Assembly: GCA_022072505.1 (NCBI GenBank)
Contig: JAJVHU010000029.1
Span: 5,917-69,916, forward strand
DNA from: Phycisphaerae bacterium
Lineage (GTDB): Bacteria > Planctomycetota > Phycisphaerae > UBA1845
Direction of reading: 5' to 3'
DNA length: 64,000 nucleotides
Of this stretch, positions 30,681-43,385 are shown one piece after another. How positions within the stretch are numbered: the first letter of the stretch is position 1; each line of letters begins with the position of its first letter. Both the position numbers and the translations under genes were made by a program. Under the pieces are notes generated by a model. That model worked only from the letters and a program-made list of their open reading frames with translations. It did not search any database and was not told the origin of the DNA.

Positions 30681-31697
30681 ATGACGGTGTCGTTATTGGC
30701 GCAAACACAACCGATGTACTGGCTGCCGCCGGATTACTCGACGCACGGGTGGCAGATCGACCAGTTGATCAACTGGATGCACGTCTTCATGGCGGTGTTG
30801 TTCGTGGGGTGGGGCGCGTTCTTCACGCAGTGCCTCGTGAAGTACCGCTACCGGCGCAACCCGACGGCCCTTTATGAGCCGATCAAGGCGAAGGCGTCGA
30901 AGGTGGTCGAGGCGGCGGTGGTGGTGATCGAGGTGGTGCTGCTGGTGGCGTTCGCGATCCCGGTGCTGGCGGAATACAAGAACGATCCGCCGAAGCCGGA
31001 AGACAATCCCTTCGAGGTTCACGTCGTCGCGCAGCAGTTCGCGTGGAACATTCACTATCCCGGTCCGGACGGGAAGTTCGGCAAGCGGAATCCGAAGCTG
31101 GTCAGCGACGCCAACAGCAACCCGCTCGGACTGGACCGCGACGGCGACCCGGACGCCAAGGATGACATCGTCGGCAACAACGAGATGCACCTGCCGGTGG
31201 GGCGCCCGATCATCGTCAAGCTGACGTCGAAGGACGTGATTCACTCGTTCTCCGTGCCGATGCTGCGGGTGAAGCAGGACACCGTGCCGGGGATGGAGAT
31301 TCCGGTCTGGTTCACGGTGAAGGAAGGGACGAGCAGCGACGCGATCCGGGAGACCATGATCCGCACGGTGGCGGTGCCCGCCGCGGGCGCGAACCCGCGG
31401 GATTTCGTGCTGTGGTGTACGAACAACATCGCGGTCGAGGACATCAAGGGCTCCGACGGGACGGTGATCGTGGGCAAGGGGCGCGAGCCGAGCGCGGAGC
31501 ACCTCGAGGCGCTTCAGAAGGCGGGGATCGGCGAGATCCGCGTCGCCCCGCGGCATCCGGTCGAGATCCACTGCACGCAGCTTTGCGGCATCACGCATTA
31601 CAAGATGCGCGGGTTCGTCATTCTGATGCCTCCGGACGAGTTCGAGACGTGGTACGCGGAGCAGGCGGCGGGCGGCGACGAATTCATTGAGGAATGA
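30681..31697 (+). CDS. ctaC: cytochrome c oxidase subunit II (CuA; no fused cytochrome c)
   Basis: ATG at 30681 follows a GGAG RBS. There are two N-terminal TM helices, the segment DVIHSFSVPMLRVKQDTVPG and the CuA loop HCTQLCGITHYKM. Confidence 0.85.
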   Translation: MTVSLLAQTQPMYWLPPDYSTHGWQIDQLINWMHVFMAVLFVGWGAFFTQCLVKYRYRRNPTALYEPIKAKASKVVEAAVVVIEVVLLVAFAIPVLAEYKNDPPKPEDNPFEVHVVAQQFAWNIHYPGPDGKFGKRNPKLVSDANSNPLGLDRDGDPDAKDDIVGNNEMHLPVGRPIIVKLTSKDVIHSFSVPMLRVKQDTVPGMEIPVWFTVKEGTSSDAIRETMIRTVAVPAAGANPRDFVLWCTNNIAVEDIKGSDGTVIVGKGREPSAEHLEALQKAGIGEIRVAPRHPVEIHCTQLCGITHYKMRGFVILMPPDEFETWYAEQAAGGDEFIEE

Positions 31698-31721
31698 CGG
31701 CGGTCGCATAAGGAACAGGGC

Positions 31722-33515
31722 ATGAGCGGCGGACATCATCACGATCACGGCGGCGGGCATCACGGGCACGAGCCCGCGCTGCACGGGCATCATCACGAGC
31801 CCGGATTCATCGGGAAATACCTCTTCTCGGTGGATCACAAGGTCATCGGCGTGCAGTACACGGTGACCGCGCTGGTCTTCCTGCTGGTGGGCTTCTCGAT
31901 GATGCTCATCATGCGGTGGCAGTTGGCGCGTCCGGGCGAGGCGGTTCCCCTGGTGGGATCGCTGCTGTCGCAACTGGGCATCACGCACGCGCAGACGAAG
32001 GCGCTGACGAACGAAGGTTACAACATGCTGGGGGCGATGCACGGGACGATCATGGTGTTCCTGGGCGTCGTGCCGCTGGCGGTGGGCGGGTTCGGCAACT
32101 ACGTGATGCCGTTGCAGATCGGGGCGAAGGACATGGCGTTCCCGAAGCTCAACATGATGAGCTACTGGGTGTACCTGTCCGGCGGCATCGTGATGATGGC
32201 GAGCTTCTGGGCCAACGGCGGGGCGGCGCAATCCGGGTGGACGTCGTATCCGCCCCTGGCGAACACGGCGCTATCGGGTCAGACGTGGTGGCTGGTCGGG
32301 ATGGTGCTGCTGATCACGTCGTCGCTGCTGGGGTCGGTGAACTTCATCGTCACGATCATGCACCTGCGGGCGAAGGGGCTGTCGATGTGGCGGCTGCCGT
32401 TTTTCGTCTGGGCGCAGTTCGTGACGGCGTTCCTGCTGCTGCTGGCGTTTCCGCCGCTGGAGGCCGCGGGCGTGATGCAGTTGATGGACCGCGTCGCGGG
32501 AACGAGCTTCTTCATGCCCGAGGGGTTGATCGTCAGCGACAAGCCGACGGCGTGGACGGGCGGCGGAAGTCCGCTGTTGTGGCAGCACCTGTTCTGGTTC
32601 CTGGCGCACCCGGAGGTGTACGTGCTGATCCTTCCGGCGATGGGGATCGTGGGGGAGATCATCGCGAACAACACGCGGAAGCCGCTGTGGGGGTACACGA
32701 CGCTGGTGTACTCGATCATTTTTCTGGGGTTCATGTCGTTCATCGTGTGGGCGCACCACATGTACATGACGGGGATGGGGACGGCGCTGTCCACGTTCTT
32801 CCAGGCGACGACGATGATCATCTCGGTTCCGTCGGTGATCATTCTGACGTGCTTCATCATCAGTCTTTACGGGGCGCGGATCCGGTACAACACGCCGATG
32901 CTTTTCGCGCTGGCGTTCCTGCCGATGTTCGCGATCGGCGGGCTGACCGGTCTGCCGCTGGGGCTGGCGGCTTCGGACATTCACCTGCACGACACGTATT
33001 ACGTGATCGGGCATTTCCACTACGTGGTGGCGCCGGGGACGATCATCGCGTTGTTCGCGGGGATTTATTACTGGTTTCCGAAGGTGACGGGGCGGCGGAT
33101 GAGCGAGTTTCTCGGCAAGCTGCACTTCTGGCCGACGCTGATCGGGATGAACATGGTGTTCGGACCGATGTTCTTCGTGGGGATCGTGGGGGTGCAGCGG
33201 CGCTTGTGGACGCAGACGGATTATCAGCTCGGTCAGATGACGCAGTACTGGGTGGTGTTCTCGTCGGTGGGCGCGGCGGTGCTGGGTCTGGGTCAGCTTC
33301 CGTTCATCTGGAACTTCTTCAGCAGCATCTTCGCGGGGAGGAAGGCGGAGCAGAACGCGTGGGAGGCGACGACGCTGGAGTGGGCGGCCGCTCCGTCGCC
33401 TCCGCCGCACGGCAACTTCCTCGCCGACCCGGTGGTGGTGTGCGGGCCGTATGAGTACAGCGTTCCGGGCAGTCCGAAAGATTACTGCCCGCAGTGTCAA
33501 ACGTCGGAGGCGTAA
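31722..33515 (+). CDS. ctaD: cytochrome c oxidase subunit I
   Basis: It shows the canonical heme-copper oxidase helices (WFLAHPEVYVLILPAMG, VWAHHMYMTG, HDTYYVIGHFHYV). The N-terminus is His-rich. Confidence 0.95.
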   Translation: MSGGHHHDHGGGHHGHEPALHGHHHEPGFIGKYLFSVDHKVIGVQYTVTALVFLLVGFSMMLIMRWQLARPGEAVPLVGSLLSQLGITHAQTKALTNEGYNMLGAMHGTIMVFLGVVPLAVGGFGNYVMPLQIGAKDMAFPKLNMMSYWVYLSGGIVMMASFWANGGAAQSGWTSYPPLANTALSGQTWWLVGMVLLITSSLLGSVNFIVTIMHLRAKGLSMWRLPFFVWAQFVTAFLLLLAFPPLEAAGVMQLMDRVAGTSFFMPEGLIVSDKPTAWTGGGSPLLWQHLFWFLAHPEVYVLILPAMGIVGEIIANNTRKPLWGYTTLVYSIIFLGFMSFIVWAHHMYMTGMGTALSTFFQATTMIISVPSVIILTCFIISLYGARIRYNTPMLFALAFLPMFAIGGLTGLPLGLAASDIHLHDTYYVIGHFHYVVAPGTIIALFAGIYYWFPKVTGRRMSEFLGKLHFWPTLIGMNMVFGPMFFVGIVGVQRRLWTQTDYQLGQMTQYWVVFSSVGAAVLGLGQLPFIWNFFSSIFAGRKAEQNAWEATTLEWAAAPSPPPHGNFLADPVVVCGPYEYSVPGSPKDYCPQCQTSEA

Positions 33516-33518
33516 CCC

Positions 33519-34124
33519 TTGTCGCACGAGCTTCTTCCTTACACGGTCAAGGCGCATCCCGTCACCGGGATGTACAGCGGGAAGCTGGGGACGTGGTTGT
33601 TCCTGGCGAGCGAGGTCATGCTCTTCGGGGCGTTGTTCTCGTCGTACATTCTGCTGCGGATCGGCAACCCCGGCGTGTTCGATCATCACGTGACGGGGTT
33701 GAACGTCTGGATCGGGCTGATCAACACGTTCGTGCTGATCGTCTCCAGCGTCTGCATGGTGCTGGCGTGGGCGAGGCTGCACGAGCAGGATCTGCCCGGA
33801 TGCCGCAAGTACCTGGCGTGGACGCTGGTGTGCGCGGTCTTCTTCCTCGTGGTGAAGTTCATCTTCGAGTACAAGTACAAGTGGGACCACGGGACGTACC
33901 CCTCGACGAACCCGTTCTACGCCTGCTACTTCACGATGACGGGGCTGCACGCGCTGCACATCGTCGGGGGGATCGTGGTCATCGGGTACTTCCTGGGTCC
34001 GGGAAGCAGGCTGTATCACACCAACCCCGAGTATTACACGAACCGGATCGAATGCACGGGGTTGTACTGGCACTTCGTCGATATCGTGTGGATTTTCCTG
34101 TTTCCGGTCTTATACTTGTTGTAG
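33519..34124 (+). CDS. ctaE: cytochrome c oxidase subunit III
   Basis: The segments LFLASEVMLFGALF, YFTMTGLHALHIVGG and YWHFVDIVWIFLF are present. Confidence 0.9.
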   Translation: MSHELLPYTVKAHPVTGMYSGKLGTWLFLASEVMLFGALFSSYILLRIGNPGVFDHHVTGLNVWIGLINTFVLIVSSVCMVLAWARLHEQDLPGCRKYLAWTLVCAVFFLVVKFIFEYKYKWDHGTYPSTNPFYACYFTMTGLHALHIVGGIVVIGYFLGPGSRLYHTNPEYYTNRIECTGLYWHFVDIVWIFLFPVLYLL

Positions 34125-38292: not shown

Positions 38293-39267
38293 CTACAACC
38301 AGCGCTTCCGGCGGAAGTACGCGAACATCCCTCCCCCGACCGCCGCCATGAAAGCGAGGACGATCCAGAACCCCAACGGGTGTTCCGCGCCAGGCCACGA
38401 CCGCAGGTTCATCCCGTAGATGCCCGCGACGGCCGTCATCGGCAGCAGGATCGCCGCGTAACCGGTCAGCACGCGCATGACCTCGCTGGTGCGCGTCGCC
38501 AGGGCCGAGTGATAGTTGTCGCGCACGCCGTCGAGGCGGTCGCGCAGCGTTCCGATCGTGTCGATGACGTTAATCAGGTGATCGCGGAGCCGGGTGAAGC
38601 GCTGCCCGAGGTTCTCGGAGATGTGGTCGAACTCCCCCTTGGCGACGGGGGCGATCAGGTCTCGCTTCGAGGTCGCCGCCCGCCGCAGCTCAAGCAGCTC
38701 CCGGTGAAGGCGCGACACCATCTGGACGATGCCCGCATCGACGTCGTCCTCGAGCGACTCCTCCTCGAGGTGTTCGACGAGGCGCTCGTAGTGCTCCGTG
38801 ACCTCGACGTAGCGGTCCACCATCATGTCGATGATGTCGTAAAGGACGAAGTCGGGCCCGCGGGCGAGGAGTTGATGCCCGATCTTCGAGCAGCGTTCGC
38901 GCATCGCGCTGATCGTGCGCAGCGGCTCGTGATGGATCGTCACCAGAAACCGCGATCCGCAGAACGCCGCGACGCGCCGCGGCTGGAACTCGGTCCCTTC
39001 GCGCGGGGCGAACGCGCCGAGCATGACGATGAAGAGGTAATGCTCGAACTCCTCGATCCGCGGTCTCGGGTCGCCGCGTTGACAGGCGTCCAGCGCCGCT
39101 CCGTCCAGGGCGCTGATGCGTCGAAGCTGCTCGATCTCCTCGGGCGTGGGGGCTTCGAGGTCCACCCAGACCGTCACCCCCTCCTGCGCCCACGCCGGAC
39201 CGAGCACCTCCAGCGACGCGATCTGCTCGGCGGTTCCATCGGAGAATCGTGCGAAAGCGGTGAACAT
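38293..39267 (-). CDS. corA: magnesium/cobalt transporter CorA
   Basis: It has a cytoplasmic funnel domain plus two C-terminal TM helices carrying the GIYGMNL (GMN) motif. Confidence 0.9.
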   Translation of the reverse strand: MFTAFARFSDGTAEQIASLEVLGPAWAQEGVTVWVDLEAPTPEEIEQLRRISALDGAALDACQRGDPRPRIEEFEHYLFIVMLGAFAPREGTEFQPRRVAAFCGSRFLVTIHHEPLRTISAMRERCSKIGHQLLARGPDFVLYDIIDMMVDRYVEVTEHYERLVEHLEEESLEDDVDAGIVQMVSRLHRELLELRRAATSKRDLIAPVAKGEFDHISENLGQRFTRLRDHLINVIDTIGTLRDRLDGVRDNYHSALATRTSEVMRVLTGYAAILLPMTAVAGIYGMNLRSWPGAEHPLGFWIVLAFMAAVGGGMFAYFRRKRWL

Positions 39268-39404
39268 GCGGTCGAAGTGTTCTCCAGGGTAATCCGGGCA
39301 TCATGCGCCAAGTCACATCGAAGGTCCACCTCCTGTCGATTTGATCGAAAACGGGTCGATCCCTAAGCTTGCGATCGGATCAACCGCGGCGGAAACAAAT
39401 GTGA

Positions 39405-42400
39405 TTGAACATGTCTGAACAGTCCGCAACCGTTCAAAAACGCGAGCGAACCGGCGCCTACGACCCGTCGGTCATCGAGCCGCGGTGGCAGGCGTGGTGG
39501 GCCGCGCGGGGGACGTACCGCGCGCCGAACCCGGGGGAGCCGGGGTTCGACCCGGCGCGGCCCAAGTTCTACGTGCTCGACATGTTCCCCTACCCGAGCG
39601 GGGCGGGGCTGCACGTCGGGCATCCGGAGGGGTACACCGCGACGGACATCGTGGCGCGATACAAGCGGGCGCGGGGGTTCAACGTCTTGCACCCGATGGG
39701 GTGGGACGCCTTCGGGTTGCCGGCCGAGCAGTACGCCATCCAGACCGGCGTCCACCCGGCGATCACCACGCGCAAGGCGATCGATACGTTCCGCCGGCAG
39801 CTTCAGCGCTTCGGGTTCTGCTACGACTGGTCGCGCGAGTTCGCCACGATCGACCCGGATTACTACCGCTGGACGCAGTGGATCTTCCTGAAGCTCTACA
39901 ATTCGTGGTTTGATACGGGAGATAGGCAACAGGCAACAGGGAACAGGCAACAGGCGGCAGGCAGCGGGCAACAGGCAGCAGGGAGCGGGCAGCAGGCGAC
40001 GGGCAGCGGGCAGCAGGAGGAGGCGCAAAAGCACACAGGGACAGAGGCGCACAGGGATGAAGGCAGGGGGGCGCAAACGTGGGACGGCGCGGAGGGCAAG
40101 GGTCGTGCCCGGGCGATTGAGGCGCTGGTGGCGGAGCTCGAGTCCGGCGAGCGCGAGCCGCGGATCAACCCCGAGGCAGCGGAGCACTCGACGGCGGACA
40201 AAGCGCAGGTCTTCGGATCGTGGTCCACGTTGGATCGAGCGACGAAGCGGCGGATCATCGACAGCTACCGACTCGCGTACCTTGCGGAACAGACCGTCAA
40301 CTGGTGCCCGAAGCTCGGCACAGCGCTGGCGAACGAGGAGGTGACGGCGGACGGGCTGTCGGAGCGCGGGCACTTCCCGGTGTTCCGAAAACCGCTGAAA
40401 CAGTGGATGCTGCGCATCACGGCGTACGCGGATCGCCTGCTGGACGGTCTGAACGTCGTGGACTGGCCGGAGAGCACGCGCATCCAGCAGACGGAGTGGA
40501 TCGGCAGAAGCGAAGGGGCGGAGATCGAGTTTCCGCTGGCGGACGTTGGCGTGGTTCAACAAGATGGGCCAGAGTTGCGTGGTGAGGCAGGGTTGCGTGG
40601 TGGGGCAGGTCTCCGACCTGCCGCGGGTCAGCCAACTCTCCGAGTTGGCTCCAAGGATTCCACGACCGAGGGAGATGGTTCGTCGATGTCATTGCATCCG
40701 CCCTCGGTCGTCGCCGACGTTGAAGTCGGCCGTGAGCCGGTCGTTCGTGCGGCGACCTTTGTCGGCCGCGATCCGTATCCGCCGGGCGAGCCGTCTCCCC
40801 ACGACTTGATTGCTCAGGCTCGCCGCCTTCCGCATCTGGAGTTGGAAGGAGCTACCTACTTCGTAACCTGGAAGACCGCTGACGGCTTGCCGCTGTCGCG
40901 GCACGAGCGGACGATGGCGTTGAAGGCGCTGGGACATTGGGACGGTCAGCGCTGCCGGGTGTATCTGGCCAATGTGATGTCGAATCACGTTCATTGGATT
41001 GTTCGGCCGTTCGAGGGAGTGCGTCTGGGCGACCTGGTGGGGAGCGTCAAGAAGTTCAGCGCACGGGAGATCCACGCGGGGCGCGGCGCGCAGGGCCGGC
41101 TTTGGCAGGAGGAACGGTTCGATCACATCATTCGGGATGAACGATGGTTCACGGCATTTACGTATTATGTCCTGCGAAATCCCGTCGTGGCGGGCGTTGT
41201 GAAGAAGCCTTCGGAATACGATCACACGTGGGTGCATGAGGAGGTCTGCGCGGCGGAGGGCCTGAGCCTGGCTGCGGGCAGTTCGGAGAACTGCCCGACC
41301 GGCGGCAGGTCGGAGACCTGCCCCACCACGCAACCCTGCCCCACCACGCAACCCTGCCTCACCACGCAACCCTGCCCCACCTTGGAGACCTGCCCCACCT
41401 TGGAGAACCGCCCGACTTTGCGCGTCTTCACCACGCGGCCCGACACGATCTTCGGGGCGACGTACATGGTGGTGGCGCCGGAGCATCCGCTGGTGGCGCG
41501 GGTGCTGGAGAACCCGGCGCCGGAGACGGATGTTCAGAAATTGCGGGCGTACGTCGAGGCGGCGCGGAACCGCGGCGACGTGGAGCGGATGGCCGGTGCG
41601 GAGAAGACCAAGACCGGCGTGTTCACGGGCGTGTATTGCATCAATCCGGCGGTGGCGGCGGAATCCACCGTCGCGGCGGGATCGACGGATCCGGTTTTCG
41701 CTGCGCATCCGGCGCGAATTCCGGTCTGGACGGCGGATTACGTGCTGATGGGATACGGCACGGGCGCGATCATGGCCGTGCCGGGACAGGACCAGCGCGA
41801 CTGGGATTTCGCCGAGGCGTTCGACCTTCCGATCGTCCGGACGGTTCAGCCGCCGGAGGGGTTTGACGGGGAGGCTTACCTCGGCGACGGACCGGCGATG
41901 AACAGCGGGTTCCTGAACGGGCTGGACATCGACGACGCGAAGCGACGGATCATCGACTGGCTGGAGGAGCGGGGTGTCGGCCGGCGGCGCGTGCAGTACA
42001 AGCTGCGCGACTGGTTGTTCTCGCGGCAGCGGTACTGGGGCGAGCCGTTTCCGATCGTCTTCGACGAGGCGGGGAATCATTACCCGGTTGAGGAGTGTCA
42101 TCTTCCTGTCACTCTTCCGGAGATGGCCGACTATCACCCGGAGGAAAGCGACGAGCCGCGTCCGCTGCTGGCGAAGGCGAGCGGGTGGGCGCGGACGACG
42201 GCGGGCGCGGCGGGGGTCCGCGCGGCGACGGATGAGGCGGACGTGCTGGGTCTGCCGCCGGACGCGCGGGTGTCGCGCGAGACGAACACGATGCCCGGGT
42301 GGGCCGGGTCGTGCTGGTACTACCTGCGCTACTGCGATCCGAAGAACCCCGCGTGCTTCTCGGGTCCGGAGGCGCATCAGTACTGGATGGGCAGGGGCGG

Positions 42401-43385
42401 CGTCGATCTTTACATCGGGGGGTCCGAACACGCCGTGCTGCACCTGCTGTATGCGCGGTTCTGGCACAAGGTCTTGTTCGACCTCGGGTGCGTCGGCACG
42501 ATCGAGCCGTTCCGCAAGCTGTTTCACCAGGGATTGATCACGTCGTACGCGTATCAGCGGCCCGACAAGTCGCTGGTCGCGGTGGACGCCGTCGAGGAAG
42601 TCGAGGAGGGGAGGTTCATCGAGCGCGAGACCGGAAAGCCGGTGGCGCAGGTCGTCGCGAAGATGAGCAAGTCGCTCAAGAACGTGGTGAACCCGGACGA
42701 CGTGATCGCGGAGTACGGCGCGGACACGTTCCGGATGTACGAGATGTTCATGGGCCCGCTGGAGGCGTCGAAACCGTGGAACCCGCGCGACGTCGGCGGG
42801 CTTTTCAAGCTGTGCAACCGGATCTGGCGGTTGTTCATCGATCCGGATACGGGAGAGGTGGGCGAGACGGTCACGACGGATGAGCCGACGCGCGAGGCGC
42901 TGCGCATCCTGCACAAGACGATCCAGCACGTCGGCGAGGACGTCGAGCATCTGAAATTCAACACCGCGATCGCCCGGTTGTTCGACTTCGTCAACGCCCT
43001 GACCCCGATGGAGCGGCGCCCCGTCGCGGTGCTCGAACCCTTCCTGCGCGTGCTGGCGCCGTTCGCGCCGCACCTGGCGGAGGAATTGCGGCATCGGCTG
43101 TGTGCGGCCGGATTGATCCCGGATGCGCCGGCGGAGTCCCCCAGCATCACGGGGCTTGCGTGGCCGGAGCACGACGAGGCGCTGGCGAAGGACGACGAGG
43201 TGGAGATTGCGGTGCAGATTCTGGGCAAAGTGAAGGCGAAGATCGTCGTTTCGGCGGACGCGGACGAAGCGACGCTGGAGCGCGTCGCGCTGGCGGACGC
43301 GAAGGTGCAGGAGCAGCTCGCGGGCAAGACGGTGCGCAAGGTCATCACGGTCCGGGGGCGGCTGGTGAACATCGTGGCGGGGTGA
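39405..43385 (+). CDS. leuS: leucine--tRNA ligase carrying two in-frame foreign insertions (1326 codons)
   Basis: The class I signatures are FPYPSGAGLHVGHPEGY (HIGH) and KMSKSLKN (KMSKS). The CP1/editing entry reads WIGRSEGAEIEF ... TLRVFTTRPDTIFGATYMVVAPEHPL. Ordinary bacterial LeuS proteins are roughly 800-900 aa. The excess maps to 39912-40100 and 40545-41414. Confidence 0.9.
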   Translation: MNMSEQSATVQKRERTGAYDPSVIEPRWQAWWAARGTYRAPNPGEPGFDPARPKFYVLDMFPYPSGAGLHVGHPEGYTATDIVARYKRARGFNVLHPMGWDAFGLPAEQYAIQTGVHPAITTRKAIDTFRRQLQRFGFCYDWSREFATIDPDYYRWTQWIFLKLYNSWFDTGDRQQATGNRQQAAGSGQQAAGSGQQATGSGQQEEAQKHTGTEAHRDEGRGAQTWDGAEGKGRARAIEALVAELESGEREPRINPEAAEHSTADKAQVFGSWSTLDRATKRRIIDSYRLAYLAEQTVNWCPKLGTALANEEVTADGLSERGHFPVFRKPLKQWMLRITAYADRLLDGLNVVDWPESTRIQQTEWIGRSEGAEIEFPLADVGVVQQDGPELRGEAGLRGGAGLRPAAGQPTLRVGSKDSTTEGDGSSMSLHPPSVVADVEVGREPVVRAATFVGRDPYPPGEPSPHDLIAQARRLPHLELEGATYFVTWKTADGLPLSRHERTMALKALGHWDGQRCRVYLANVMSNHVHWIVRPFEGVRLGDLVGSVKKFSAREIHAGRGAQGRLWQEERFDHIIRDERWFTAFTYYVLRNPVVAGVVKKPSEYDHTWVHEEVCAAEGLSLAAGSSENCPTGGRSETCPTTQPCPTTQPCLTTQPCPTLETCPTLENRPTLRVFTTRPDTIFGATYMVVAPEHPLVARVLENPAPETDVQKLRAYVEAARNRGDVERMAGAEKTKTGVFTGVYCINPAVAAESTVAAGSTDPVFAAHPARIPVWTADYVLMGYGTGAIMAVPGQDQRDWDFAEAFDLPIVRTVQPPEGFDGEAYLGDGPAMNSGFLNGLDIDDAKRRIIDWLEERGVGRRRVQYKLRDWLFSRQRYWGEPFPIVFDEAGNHYPVEECHLPVTLPEMADYHPEESDEPRPLLAKASGWARTTAGAAGVRAATDEADVLGLPPDARVSRETNTMPGWAGSCWYYLRYCDPKNPACFSGPEAHQYWMGRGGVDLYIGGSEHAVLHLLYARFWHKVLFDLGCVGTIEPFRKLFHQGLITSYAYQRPDKSLVAVDAVEEVEEGRFIERETGKPVAQVVAKMSKSLKNVVNPDDVIAEYGADTFRMYEMFMGPLEASKPWNPRDVGGLFKLCNRIWRLFIDPDTGEVGETVTTDEPTREALRILHKTIQHVGEDVEHLKFNTAIARLFDFVNALTPMERRPVAVLEPFLRVLAPFAPHLAEELRHRLCAAGLIPDAPAESPSITGLAWPEHDEALAKDDEVEIAVQILGKVKAKIVVSADADEATLERVALADAKVQEQLAGKTVRKVITVRGRLVNIVAG
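39912..40016 (+). repeat. 5 x 21-nt tandem repeat inside leuS (encodes DTGDRQQ ATGNRQQ AAGSGQQ AAGSGQQ ATGSGQQ)
   Basis: Manual reading gives five head-to-tail 21-nt units of the GCNNCNGGNAGCGGGCARCAG type, in frame with leuS. Confidence 0.8.
40575..40622 (+). repeat. left inverted repeat of the Y1-transposase unit (contains hairpin GGCAGGTC-TCC-GACCTGCC at 40604-40622)
   Basis: TTGCGTGGTGAGGCAGGGTTGCGTGGTGGGGCAGGTCTCCGACCTGCC is the exact reverse complement of the right-end sequence once that end's extra 18-nt unit is removed. A second hairpin, GCCAACTC-TCC-GAGTTGGC, follows at 40631-40649. Confidence 0.85.
41304..41369 (+). repeat. right inverted repeat of the Y1-transposase unit (hairpin GGCAGGTC-GGA-GACCTGCC at 41304-41322, then 3 x 18-nt CCACCACGCAACCCTGCC units)
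   Basis: It is the reverse complement of 40575-40622 with one additional 18-nt unit. It is followed by 2 x CCTGCCCCACCTTGGAGA at about 41371-41406. Confidence 0.85.

Follow-up and report, generated by a model that had tools for sequence, protein, structure and literature searches.

An in-frame REP-associated tyrosine transposase cassette within the leucyl-tRNA synthetase gene of a Phycisphaerae bacterium

The leuS gene of a Phycisphaerae bacterium (assembly GCA_022072505.1) contains, in frame, a complete cassette made of a repetitive extragenic palindrome (REP)-associated tyrosine transposase (RAYT) and the REP hairpins that flank it. The gene lies in a stretch of 64,000 nucleotides (nt) of contig JAJVHU010000029.1 (positions 5,917 to 69,916), which we call the window. 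leuS is a single open reading frame (ORF) whose product scores 921 bits against the TIGR00396 leuS_bact equivalog. All class I aminoacyl-tRNA synthetase (aaRS), editing-domain, and anticodon-domain families were detected by Pfam, and the LeuS catalytic blocks are conserved. CorA is encoded upstream of leuS, as in the closest relatives, and the gene is the orthologous leuS locus. The spacing from WIGRSEGAEIEFPLAD to LRVFTTRPDT is 309 residues in the window LeuS versus 26 to 27 residues in about 90 insert-free LeuS relatives. The conserved block WIGRSEGAEIEF stands opposite LRVFTTRPDT, with these 309 residues between the two. The insertion site aligns with the loop FPVEGKEV (about residues 236 to 240) of the T. 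thermophilus LeuRS (1H3N), which is the first β-hairpin of the CP1 editing domain. The GC content at third codon positions (GC3) is 0.72 within the insert versus 0.87 to 0.89 in the leuS flanks. An initial annotation, made from the sequence alone, had described an uninterrupted 1326-codon leuS with about 290 extra codons, and, within them, an entire HUH/Y1 transposase unit whose inverted ends carry hairpins, in the leuS frame and without its own stop. All of these features were found where it had placed them, and an alignment of LeuS orthologs set the borders of the insert at about 40538 and 41416.

The RAYT domain is recognized by both profile and fold. NCBIfam NF047646 (REP_Tyr_transpos) matches it with an E value of 2.2e-21 and 76.3 bits (curated cutoff, 80) over profile positions 4 to 145 of 146, and Pfam Y1_Tnp matches it with 22.4 bits (cutoff, 23). 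A profile of 25 family members matches the E. coli TnpAREP (PDB 4ER8; E=2e-10) and places the invariant tyrosine opposite the catalytic Tyr115. AlphaFold2 modeled the 174-aa core with a predicted local distance difference test score (pLDDT) of 92 and a predicted template modeling score (pTM) of 0.88. When this model was compared with the PDB by Foldseek, the top match was 4er8_A (E=5e-9), followed by the IS200, IS608, and ISDra2 transposases. Residues H81-V82-H83 and Y141/N145/P146 are invariant in 25 of 25 embedded copies, and the length of the core is constant at 173 to 175 aa. The catalytic motifs are intact, as had been claimed. The domain lacks both its own stop codon and a conserved internal start; relatives do not share the Met at 40686. 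Scanning for sigma-70-like promoters gave none upstream of the RAYT domain, the sole match (41102 to 41131) being inside the domain, and a scan for terminator-like sites at the insert found none. No second RAYT copy was found within the 64-kb window. An intein or other splicing domain was considered and rejected: Pfam on the whole protein gives only aaRS families and Y1_Tnp, with no intein or Hint family, in agreement with the earlier statement that splicing motifs are absent.

Both ends of the insert are built of REP hairpins (Table 1). The inverted arms (40565 to 40643 and 41283 to 41361) are 79 nt each and 89% complementary, and they extend outward through 18-nt tandem units. The hairpin pattern has five matches across the 64-kb window, all at the insert, versus 0.03 expected. 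A further scan used a fixed geometry of 8-bp stem, 3-nt loop, and 8-bp stem. Perfect hairpins lie at 40604 to 40622, 40631 to 40649, 41277 to 41295, and 41304 to 41322; the second of these is the additional left hairpin that the initial annotation had pointed out. Apart from one additional 18-nt unit, the 48-nt left block of that annotation and the right side are indeed exact reverse complements. An identical 23-mer stands on the plus strand at the left end and on the minus strand at the right end. Therefore, the tetranucleotide foot faces outward at both ends. When the element is folded as a single strand, its arms form a single long stem that leaves the RAYT as the loop (ΔG of -243.5 kcal/mol, z = -10.9). 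The leuS insert is in effect a giant REPIN (REP doublet forming a hairpin) with the transposase as its spacer.

Table 1. Coordinates of leuS, the inserted element, and its parts in the window
Feature	Position	Strand	Remarks
leuS	39405..43385	+	single ORF of 1326 codons; TTG start; HIGH and KMSKS motifs present
Whole inserted element, about 293 codons	~40538..41416	+	occupies the short loop of insert-free LeuS; no similarity to sister genome L003
Left array of 18-nt units CAGGGTTGCGTGGTGRGG (unit = foot + half stem)	40570..40605	+	2 units; 3 in metagenome contig L128
Left REP, 23 nt: foot GTGG, GGCAGGTC-TCC-GACCTGCC	40600..40622	+	fixed 8-3-8 scan
Inner left hairpin: GTCA, GCCAACTC-TCC-GAGTTGGC	40627..40649	+	fixed 8-3-8 scan
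RAYT (TnpAREP-like HUH/Y1) domain, 174 aa	40746..41267	+	leuS frame; profile, fold
HUH motif (HVH in SNHVHWIV)	40986..40994	+	invariant in 25 family members
Catalytic Tyr (Y-x3-N-P motif, YVLRNP)	41166..41168	+	aligns with Tyr115 of E. coli TnpAREP
Inner right hairpin: GTCG, GGCAGTTC-TCC-GAACTGCC	41277..41299	-	fixed 8-3-8 scan
Right REP: foot GTGG, GGCAGGTC-TCC-GACCTGCC	41304..41326	-	identical to left REP
Right array: three CAGGGTTGCGTGGTGRGG-type 18-nt units and about 2 variant units (CCTGCCCCACCTTGGAGA on + strand)	41317..41413	-	

The leuS unit is a REPtron, that is, a RAYT with flanking inverted REP arrays, and it is nearer to REP/RAYT systems than to IS200/IS605. The initial annotation had likened the ends to both systems. 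The inverted, footed REPs support the first likeness, but the hairpins of the two ends are not on the same strand, and the likeness to IS200/IS605 ends does not hold. No further REP copy was found outside the element within the 64-kb window. The exact window 23-mer GTGGGGCAGGTCTCCGACCTGCC is dispersed at no fewer than 117 loci (at least) in other genomes, those of Bryobacterales, Verrucomicrobiales, Opitutaceae, and Phycisphaerales. Among the matches listed, a RAYT is nearby at only 2 of these approximately 117 loci, which are therefore ordinary dispersed REPs. The presence of one 23-mer across phyla points to strong sequence constraint or to a REP/RAYT system that spread horizontally. The loci (L007 to L123) span Acidobacteriota (Bryobacterales), Verrucomicrobiota, Planctomycetota, and one Deltaproteobacteria metagenome-assembled genome (MAG). 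The copies are often clustered with sibling hairpins that have the TCC loop in common and differ in their stems.

We built an AlphaFold2 model of LeuS residues 1 to 1200 from a 66-sequence alignment, a check that the initial annotation had suggested. The LeuS body is confident, and RAYT residues 433 to 619 have a pLDDT of 77 to 97. The pLDDT falls below 50 only at residues 1 to 8, 175 to 230, 383 to 432, and 620 to 666. Segments 383 to 432 and 620 to 666 coincide exactly with the peptides that the REP arrays encode. Their low pLDDT suggests that these peptides are flexible linkers.

A second in-frame insertion in leuS (39924 to 40017; codons ~175 to 230) consists of 21-nt tandem repeats with a 7-nt subperiod. 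It encodes a low-complexity GNRQQAAGSGQQ-type sequence that is disordered in the AlphaFold2 model, and no hairpin or REP signature was seen in it. This repeat is shorter in the sister LeuS P0016 and has several substitutions in contig L128.

The element recurs in other LeuS proteins, and its distribution is patchy. Our comparison set was the 120 best LeuS relatives, from MAGs of Phycisphaerae/Phycisphaerales. About 25 of the 120 carry a RAYT of 173 to 175 aa at exactly the loop used in the window, four carry one at a second LeuS site, and one has a more distant RAYT at a third site. About 75% of the close relatives have no RAYT. The initial annotation knew of no precedent in an aaRS. Full-text literature searches likewise turned up no account of a whole RAYT cassette within the reading frame of a host gene, but the window insert is not unique. 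With the insert alone as the query, the best match was a MiaA protein with an internal RAYT (54% identity), followed by a DUF1156 methylase. The closest LeuS relative, P0016 (L003, GCA_045863715.1), has DNA flanks that are 94 to 96% identical to the window but no RAYT at the site. Its LeuS loop is instead occupied by an unrelated, in-frame pair of inverted repeats of 175 nt (L003:11085-11259; also L004). This mini-element has a GTAC-footed GGCCTGTC-TCC-GAGAGGCC hairpin, with the footed REP geometry at one end. It is REPIN-like and RAYT-less, and it fits the definition of an in-frame REP insertion of the Rickettsia palindromic element (RPE) kind.

Host and element are discordant. LeuS proteins P0066 and P0034 are 96.6% identical, but their RAYTs are only 57.6% identical. 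The same holds for P0107 and P0077 (host, 93.6%; RAYT, 53.9%) and for P0105 and P0076 (host, 83.9%; RAYT, 46.6%), the latter two having different REP classes. Conversely, P0112 and P0028 are hosts with 63% identity and RAYTs with 66%. Overall, host identity and RAYT identity have a weak positive correlation (Spearman, 0.24), and neighbor-joining trees of RAYT and host, which are noisy (163 columns, long branches), have 1 of 22 bipartitions in common. The DNA of the P0066 and P0034 loci (L126 and L127) is 95 to 100% identical up to the REP foot (...TTGGGTACCCC). Identity then drops to 45 to 78% through the element and recovers about 50 nt past its right end. The TTGGGTACCCC terminus is also present in the MiaA element. 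A 57-nt patch beside the L126/L127 element has 11 synonymous differences versus 3.1 expected. This is only a weak hint of co-conversion, because 2.3% of other windows are equally divergent. Near-identical hosts carry divergent RAYTs, and the closest relative is RAYT-less; therefore, the element turns over horizontally. These sequence comparisons disfavor simple vertical inheritance and favor repeated replacement or re-invasion of a permissive site.

The same data bear on the idea of a single old event in an ancestral Phycisphaerae leuS, followed by repeated precise loss and fast RAYT evolution. Such an ancient, immobile insertion would account for the identical loop in ~25 LeuS proteins, for the constant length of the RAYT core, and for the weak host/RAYT correlation. 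It does not readily account for hosts of 96.6% and 93.6% identity with RAYTs of 57.6% and 53.9%, for RAYTs that can be as similar as their 63% identical hosts, or for a difference in REP class between the sister hosts P0105 and P0076. Furthermore, the MiaA copy is as near to the window RAYT as most LeuS copies are, the break in identity at the REP foot is abrupt, and the GC3 of the insert is below that of the host gene. We therefore regard an ancient insertion as unlikely. The initial annotation had named an ancient conserved domain without flanking inverted repeats as one finding that would speak against it. This is not what we found: the relatives examined at the DNA level have inverted or footed REPs, one bipartition in 22 is shared, and identities are 96.6% versus 57.6%.

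The RAYT clade is not confined to LeuS. A family profile searched against 1.84 billion representative proteins gave 287 matches below 1e-30. Among the best 149 family representatives, the domain is internal in 39 (at least 80 aa on each side), and 22 have one long flank. Host identities were assigned by Pfam. Besides LeuS, the query family, the hosts seen were ValS (about 8), RdgB/Ham1 (about 8), AlaS (3), PurH (2), RecG (2), and DNA methylase or type ISP enzymes (several). Further hosts, not counted, were MiaA, DnaK, MurB, an SNF2 helicase, an S-adenosylmethionine (SAM) methyltransferase, and PriA of Verrucomicrobiota (on 48 contigs). Judged by sequence, over 12 further families of housekeeping genes carry the same RAYT clade in frame. 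An automatic JGI name already reads "DnaK/REP element-mobilizing transposase RayT." Three further proteins, P0146 (721 aa), P0194 (1107 aa), and P0208 (617 aa), have an internal or near-terminal RAYT, and their host parts have no Pfam match at E<=1e-5; they represent uncharacterized hosts of this element family.

We inspected the DNA of seven RAYT-bearing loci: three leuS loci, miaA, the DUF1156 methylase gene, dnaK, and purH. In each of the seven, the RAYT lies between footed hairpin repeats or inverted repeats. Six of them (the window, L001, L002, L005, L124, and L125) have at both ends a GT[AG][GC] foot followed by a hairpin with an 8-bp stem and a 3-nt loop. The seventh, L006, has irregular stems that the 8-3-8 scan missed and that are visible only as inverted repeats. 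The loop is mostly TCC, and the stem sequences are wholly different between loci; the two ends of L002 differ by a compensatory change. A geometry that stays the same while the stems vary is expected under structure-specific recognition. At the dnaK locus (L124:2989-3694, GCA_022843565.1), a complete REPIN, with a REP and an inverted REP about 55 nt apart, stands on each side of the RAYT. Therefore, a 35-aa peptide (GAGVPPASPG...RRDACPT) is directly repeated before and after the RAYT. REPs can also be inserted in frame into a RAYT gene, a situation that Quentin et al. described for subclass 2.4: the ORF of the free-standing RAYT P0010 (224 aa, on an 8.65-Mb contig) includes, internally or at its end, the peptides SETCPTT and WQVGDLPH, which are encoded by REPs.

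Recurrence in many hosts also speaks to the possibility that RAYT was domesticated as a LeuS accessory domain, for example, for nucleic acid binding or regulation, and is inherited vertically with its hairpins as relics. RAYTs in general are viewed as domesticated single-copy genes (PMC5581495, PMC8266576), and intact motifs at one site across many Phycisphaerae LeuS proteins would fit such an exaptation. A LeuS-specific function is hard to reconcile with the occurrence of the same cassette in over 12 host proteins unrelated to one another and at three or more LeuS sites, or with the ~75% of close LeuS relatives that do without it. Near-identical hosts with very different RAYTs and different REP stems, and repeats that flank the RAYT in 7 of 7 loci and are regular 8-3-8 hairpins at both ends in 6 of 7, argue in the same direction. 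We consider exaptation improbable, somewhat more so than an ancient insertion.

The window leuS was also recovered independently. Metagenome contig L128 (WBZY01008304.1), which comes from the same strain, is 98.7% identical over the aligned region (window 39000 to 41486), with the same element and an open frame. The RAYT is 100% identical, and the left array has one extra 18-nt unit (AGLRGG) and a few substitutions. The substitutions cluster in the repeat arrays, and the array changes are multiples of 3 nt. The REP arrays are the fast-evolving part of the element in this comparison.

The initial annotation had left open whether the fusion is tolerated or the element is excised precisely at the DNA level. 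Y1/HUH enzymes such as IS200/IS605 transposases excise seamlessly. With excision in part of the population, or mRNA processing driven by the arms, working LeuS would be made from templates that lack the insert, and the fusion itself would be nonfunctional. The strong single-strand pairing of the 79-nt arms (z = -10.9) and the difference in array copy number between the window and L128 are compatible with it. However, the element is present in both independent assemblies of the strain, and REP and inverted REP (iREP) are on opposite strands. A fusion that served no use would also not require the frame to stay open over 290 or more codons, as it does in dozens of lineages and in other hosts. That the element has persisted for long in many lineages favors a functional fusion, and conditional excision is a very improbable account.

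Long spurious ORFs are common in the window, but an assembly chimera, or a disrupted leuS that is open only through the 66% GC, is effectively refuted. The product of this frame includes a RAYT (E=2e-21) that is modeled with confidence, the LeuS catalytic blocks are all conserved, gene order at the locus agrees with that in relatives, and the element is found again in the independent contig L128 and in over 25 further assemblies. The same element and open frame in L128, together with the shared CorA-leuS arrangement, make a chimera or pseudogene very unlikely, which answers the assembly concern raised at the outset. Two antisense ORFs over leuS, at 40689 to 43172 (minus strand, 827 aa) and 39363 to 40562 (minus strand, 399 aa), are R/P/H-rich and look spurious. 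Such long spurious ORFs arise because of the 66% GC, and ORF length alone is no evidence in this window, a caution already voiced in the initial annotation. An apparent split ileS at 30693 to 34073 (minus strand) was rejected as well, because its translation is that of a spurious antisense ORF.

We conclude that the insert is probably a selfish, REPtron-type element that settled in a permissive surface loop of LeuS and kept the frame open. In this scenario, leuS transcription and translation would express the RAYT as an internal LeuS domain, making a promoter, start, and stop of its own unnecessary. The REP arrays would be translated into two disordered linkers of about 45 to 50 residues each. 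Through these linkers, a RAYT that is folded and catalytically intact would be attached to the first CP1 β-hairpin, and the synthetase would remain functional. The RAYT domain may recognize GT[AG]G-footed 8-3-8 REP hairpins in single-stranded DNA (ssDNA) and cut and rejoin them, as has been shown biochemically for the E. coli and S. maltophilia TnpAREP (PMC8266576). It would thereby maintain and reshape the arrays on either side of it and, probably, REPs dispersed elsewhere. In an essential host gene, survival would be limited to states that are in frame and free of stops, and imprecise deletion would be lethal. Selection on the host would thus remove out-of-frame and stop-containing variants and imprecise deletions, and the element would be guarded against loss. 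The element may move or replace itself horizontally among leuS alleles and into other housekeeping genes. One possible route is RAYT-mediated ssDNA transposition of the whole giant REPIN. Another is that DNA is transferred horizontally and then recombines homologously with the conserved flanks of the gene, which would be homing-like.

Several points weigh against a selfish element of this kind. The NCBIfam and Pfam scores are slightly below the curated cutoffs. We infer, rather than observe, the expression of a 147-kDa fusion, the activity of its LeuS and of its RAYT nuclease, and the route of transfer. The source genome may have a second leuS elsewhere. The REP and iREP are on opposite strands, and IS608-style single-strand excision of the whole cassette is not straightforward, because the E. 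coli TnpAREP is inactive on iREP (PMC8266576). The 64-kb window has no other REP or RAYT copy, and hence activity in the source genome is only putative. Finally, the noise in the trees limits their weight, and the putative co-conversion patch is weak evidence.

The closest known systems are REPtrons, especially the group 3 REPtron Sm of S. maltophilia. The window cassette shares with them the HUH and Tyr nuclease, with 4ER8 as its best match in both sequence and fold, and 23-nt REPs that are inverted around the gene, with a GT[AG]G-type foot, an 8-bp perfect palindrome, and a 3-nt loop. The S. maltophilia group 3 REP is likewise 23 nt long, with GTAG, an 8-bp perfect palindrome, and a 3-nt loop, and its binding and cleavage by TnpAREP were demonstrated in vitro (PMC8266576). 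As with REPtrons, the same 23-mer is dispersed in other genomes (PMC8266576, PMC6006769). However, described REPtrons are intergenic and free-standing, with their own start and stop, whereas the window cassette is in frame in an essential ORF and has no stop. Unlike them, the embedded clade recurs in many housekeeping genes and has its own N-terminal extension, F-x-x-R-D-P-Y-P-P-G. REPINs and TIRtrons have also been described as intergenic, as have REPtrons (PMC3733652, PMC6006769, PMC8266576, PMC5581495). Like REPINs, the cassette has two inverted REP arms that pair in ssDNA, but the short spacer of a REPIN is replaced by the RAYT gene itself, giving an autonomous giant REPIN. TIRtrons (or TIRYTs) offer a similar case, in which long terminal inverted repeats enclose certain RAYT-like genes (PMC3733652), but the window cassette is intragenic.

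IS200/IS605 elements such as IS608 and ISDra2 share the Y1 HUH fold (Foldseek matches 2 to 30) and the use of hairpins as recognition elements. Their hairpins are on the same strand and their ends are not inverted repeats, in contrast to the 79-nt inverted repeats of the window element. They also lack GT[AG]G-footed REPs, which the window element has. They form multiple identical copies and disrupt genes, whereas the window element is single copy in 64 kb and leaves the leuS frame open.

Translation of palindromic repeats has precedents. Short REPs in frame inside tnpAREP itself are already known. In-frame REPs and Rickettsia RPEs are translated palindromic repeats in functional, often housekeeping proteins, with tRNA synthetases and PVC bacteria such as the verrucomicrobium Opitutus terrae among the cases (PMC3733652). 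The window repeats are likewise translated within the host ORF, and the L003 mini-element is exactly such an insertion. However, in-frame REPs and RPEs encode 20 to 80 aa and no enzyme, whereas the window repeats enclose a complete transposase. The lifestyle resembles that of inteins. Both are in frame in conserved essential proteins, are sporadic among relatives, and have divergent elements re-occupying the same site; expression through the host gene would be a further likeness, and co-conversion of flanks is a possible one. Unlike an intein, the cassette has no Hint or splicing domain, and its junctions are variable REP-coded peptides without conserved junction residues. The insert presumably stays in the mature protein, and the enzyme that it encodes belongs to the ssDNA HUH nucleases instead of the LAGLIDADG or HNH endonucleases.

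What is new here is the protein-embedded lifestyle; the REP/RAYT system itself is known. We tentatively suggest, with rather less confidence than in the reading of the leuS insert, that these cassettes may form a distinct and previously unrecognized class of elements, protein-embedded HUH transposons or "autonomous giant REPINs." They would be non-splicing, in-frame modules of essential housekeeping genes in the Planctomycetes-Verrucomicrobia-Chlamydiae (PVC) and neighboring phyla, expressed only by the host and capable of homing-like re-invasion. Such elements would be to DNA transposons what inteins are to protein-splicing elements, and they might represent the autonomous state from which REPIN/RAYT systems descend. 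Quentin et al. 2018 set aside "unexpectedly long" TnpAY1 proteins as fusions or annotation errors. Because large-scale surveys dropped such too-long Y1 proteins as errors, the phenomenon has probably been systematically overlooked.

In LeuRS, ValRS, AlaRS, DnaK, and other hosts, the insertion loops would point to places that tolerate an inserted domain, and the fusions would be natural HUH-tagged proteins. If our reading is correct, a DNA transposase persists as a translated passenger of essential enzymes (aaRSs, DnaK, PurH, and PriA), a strategy so far known only for inteins, which must splice out. This would bear on how REP/RAYT systems arise, move, and persist, with the RAYT and its REPs forming one bounded unit whose gain, loss, and replacement could be read directly against a highly conserved host gene.

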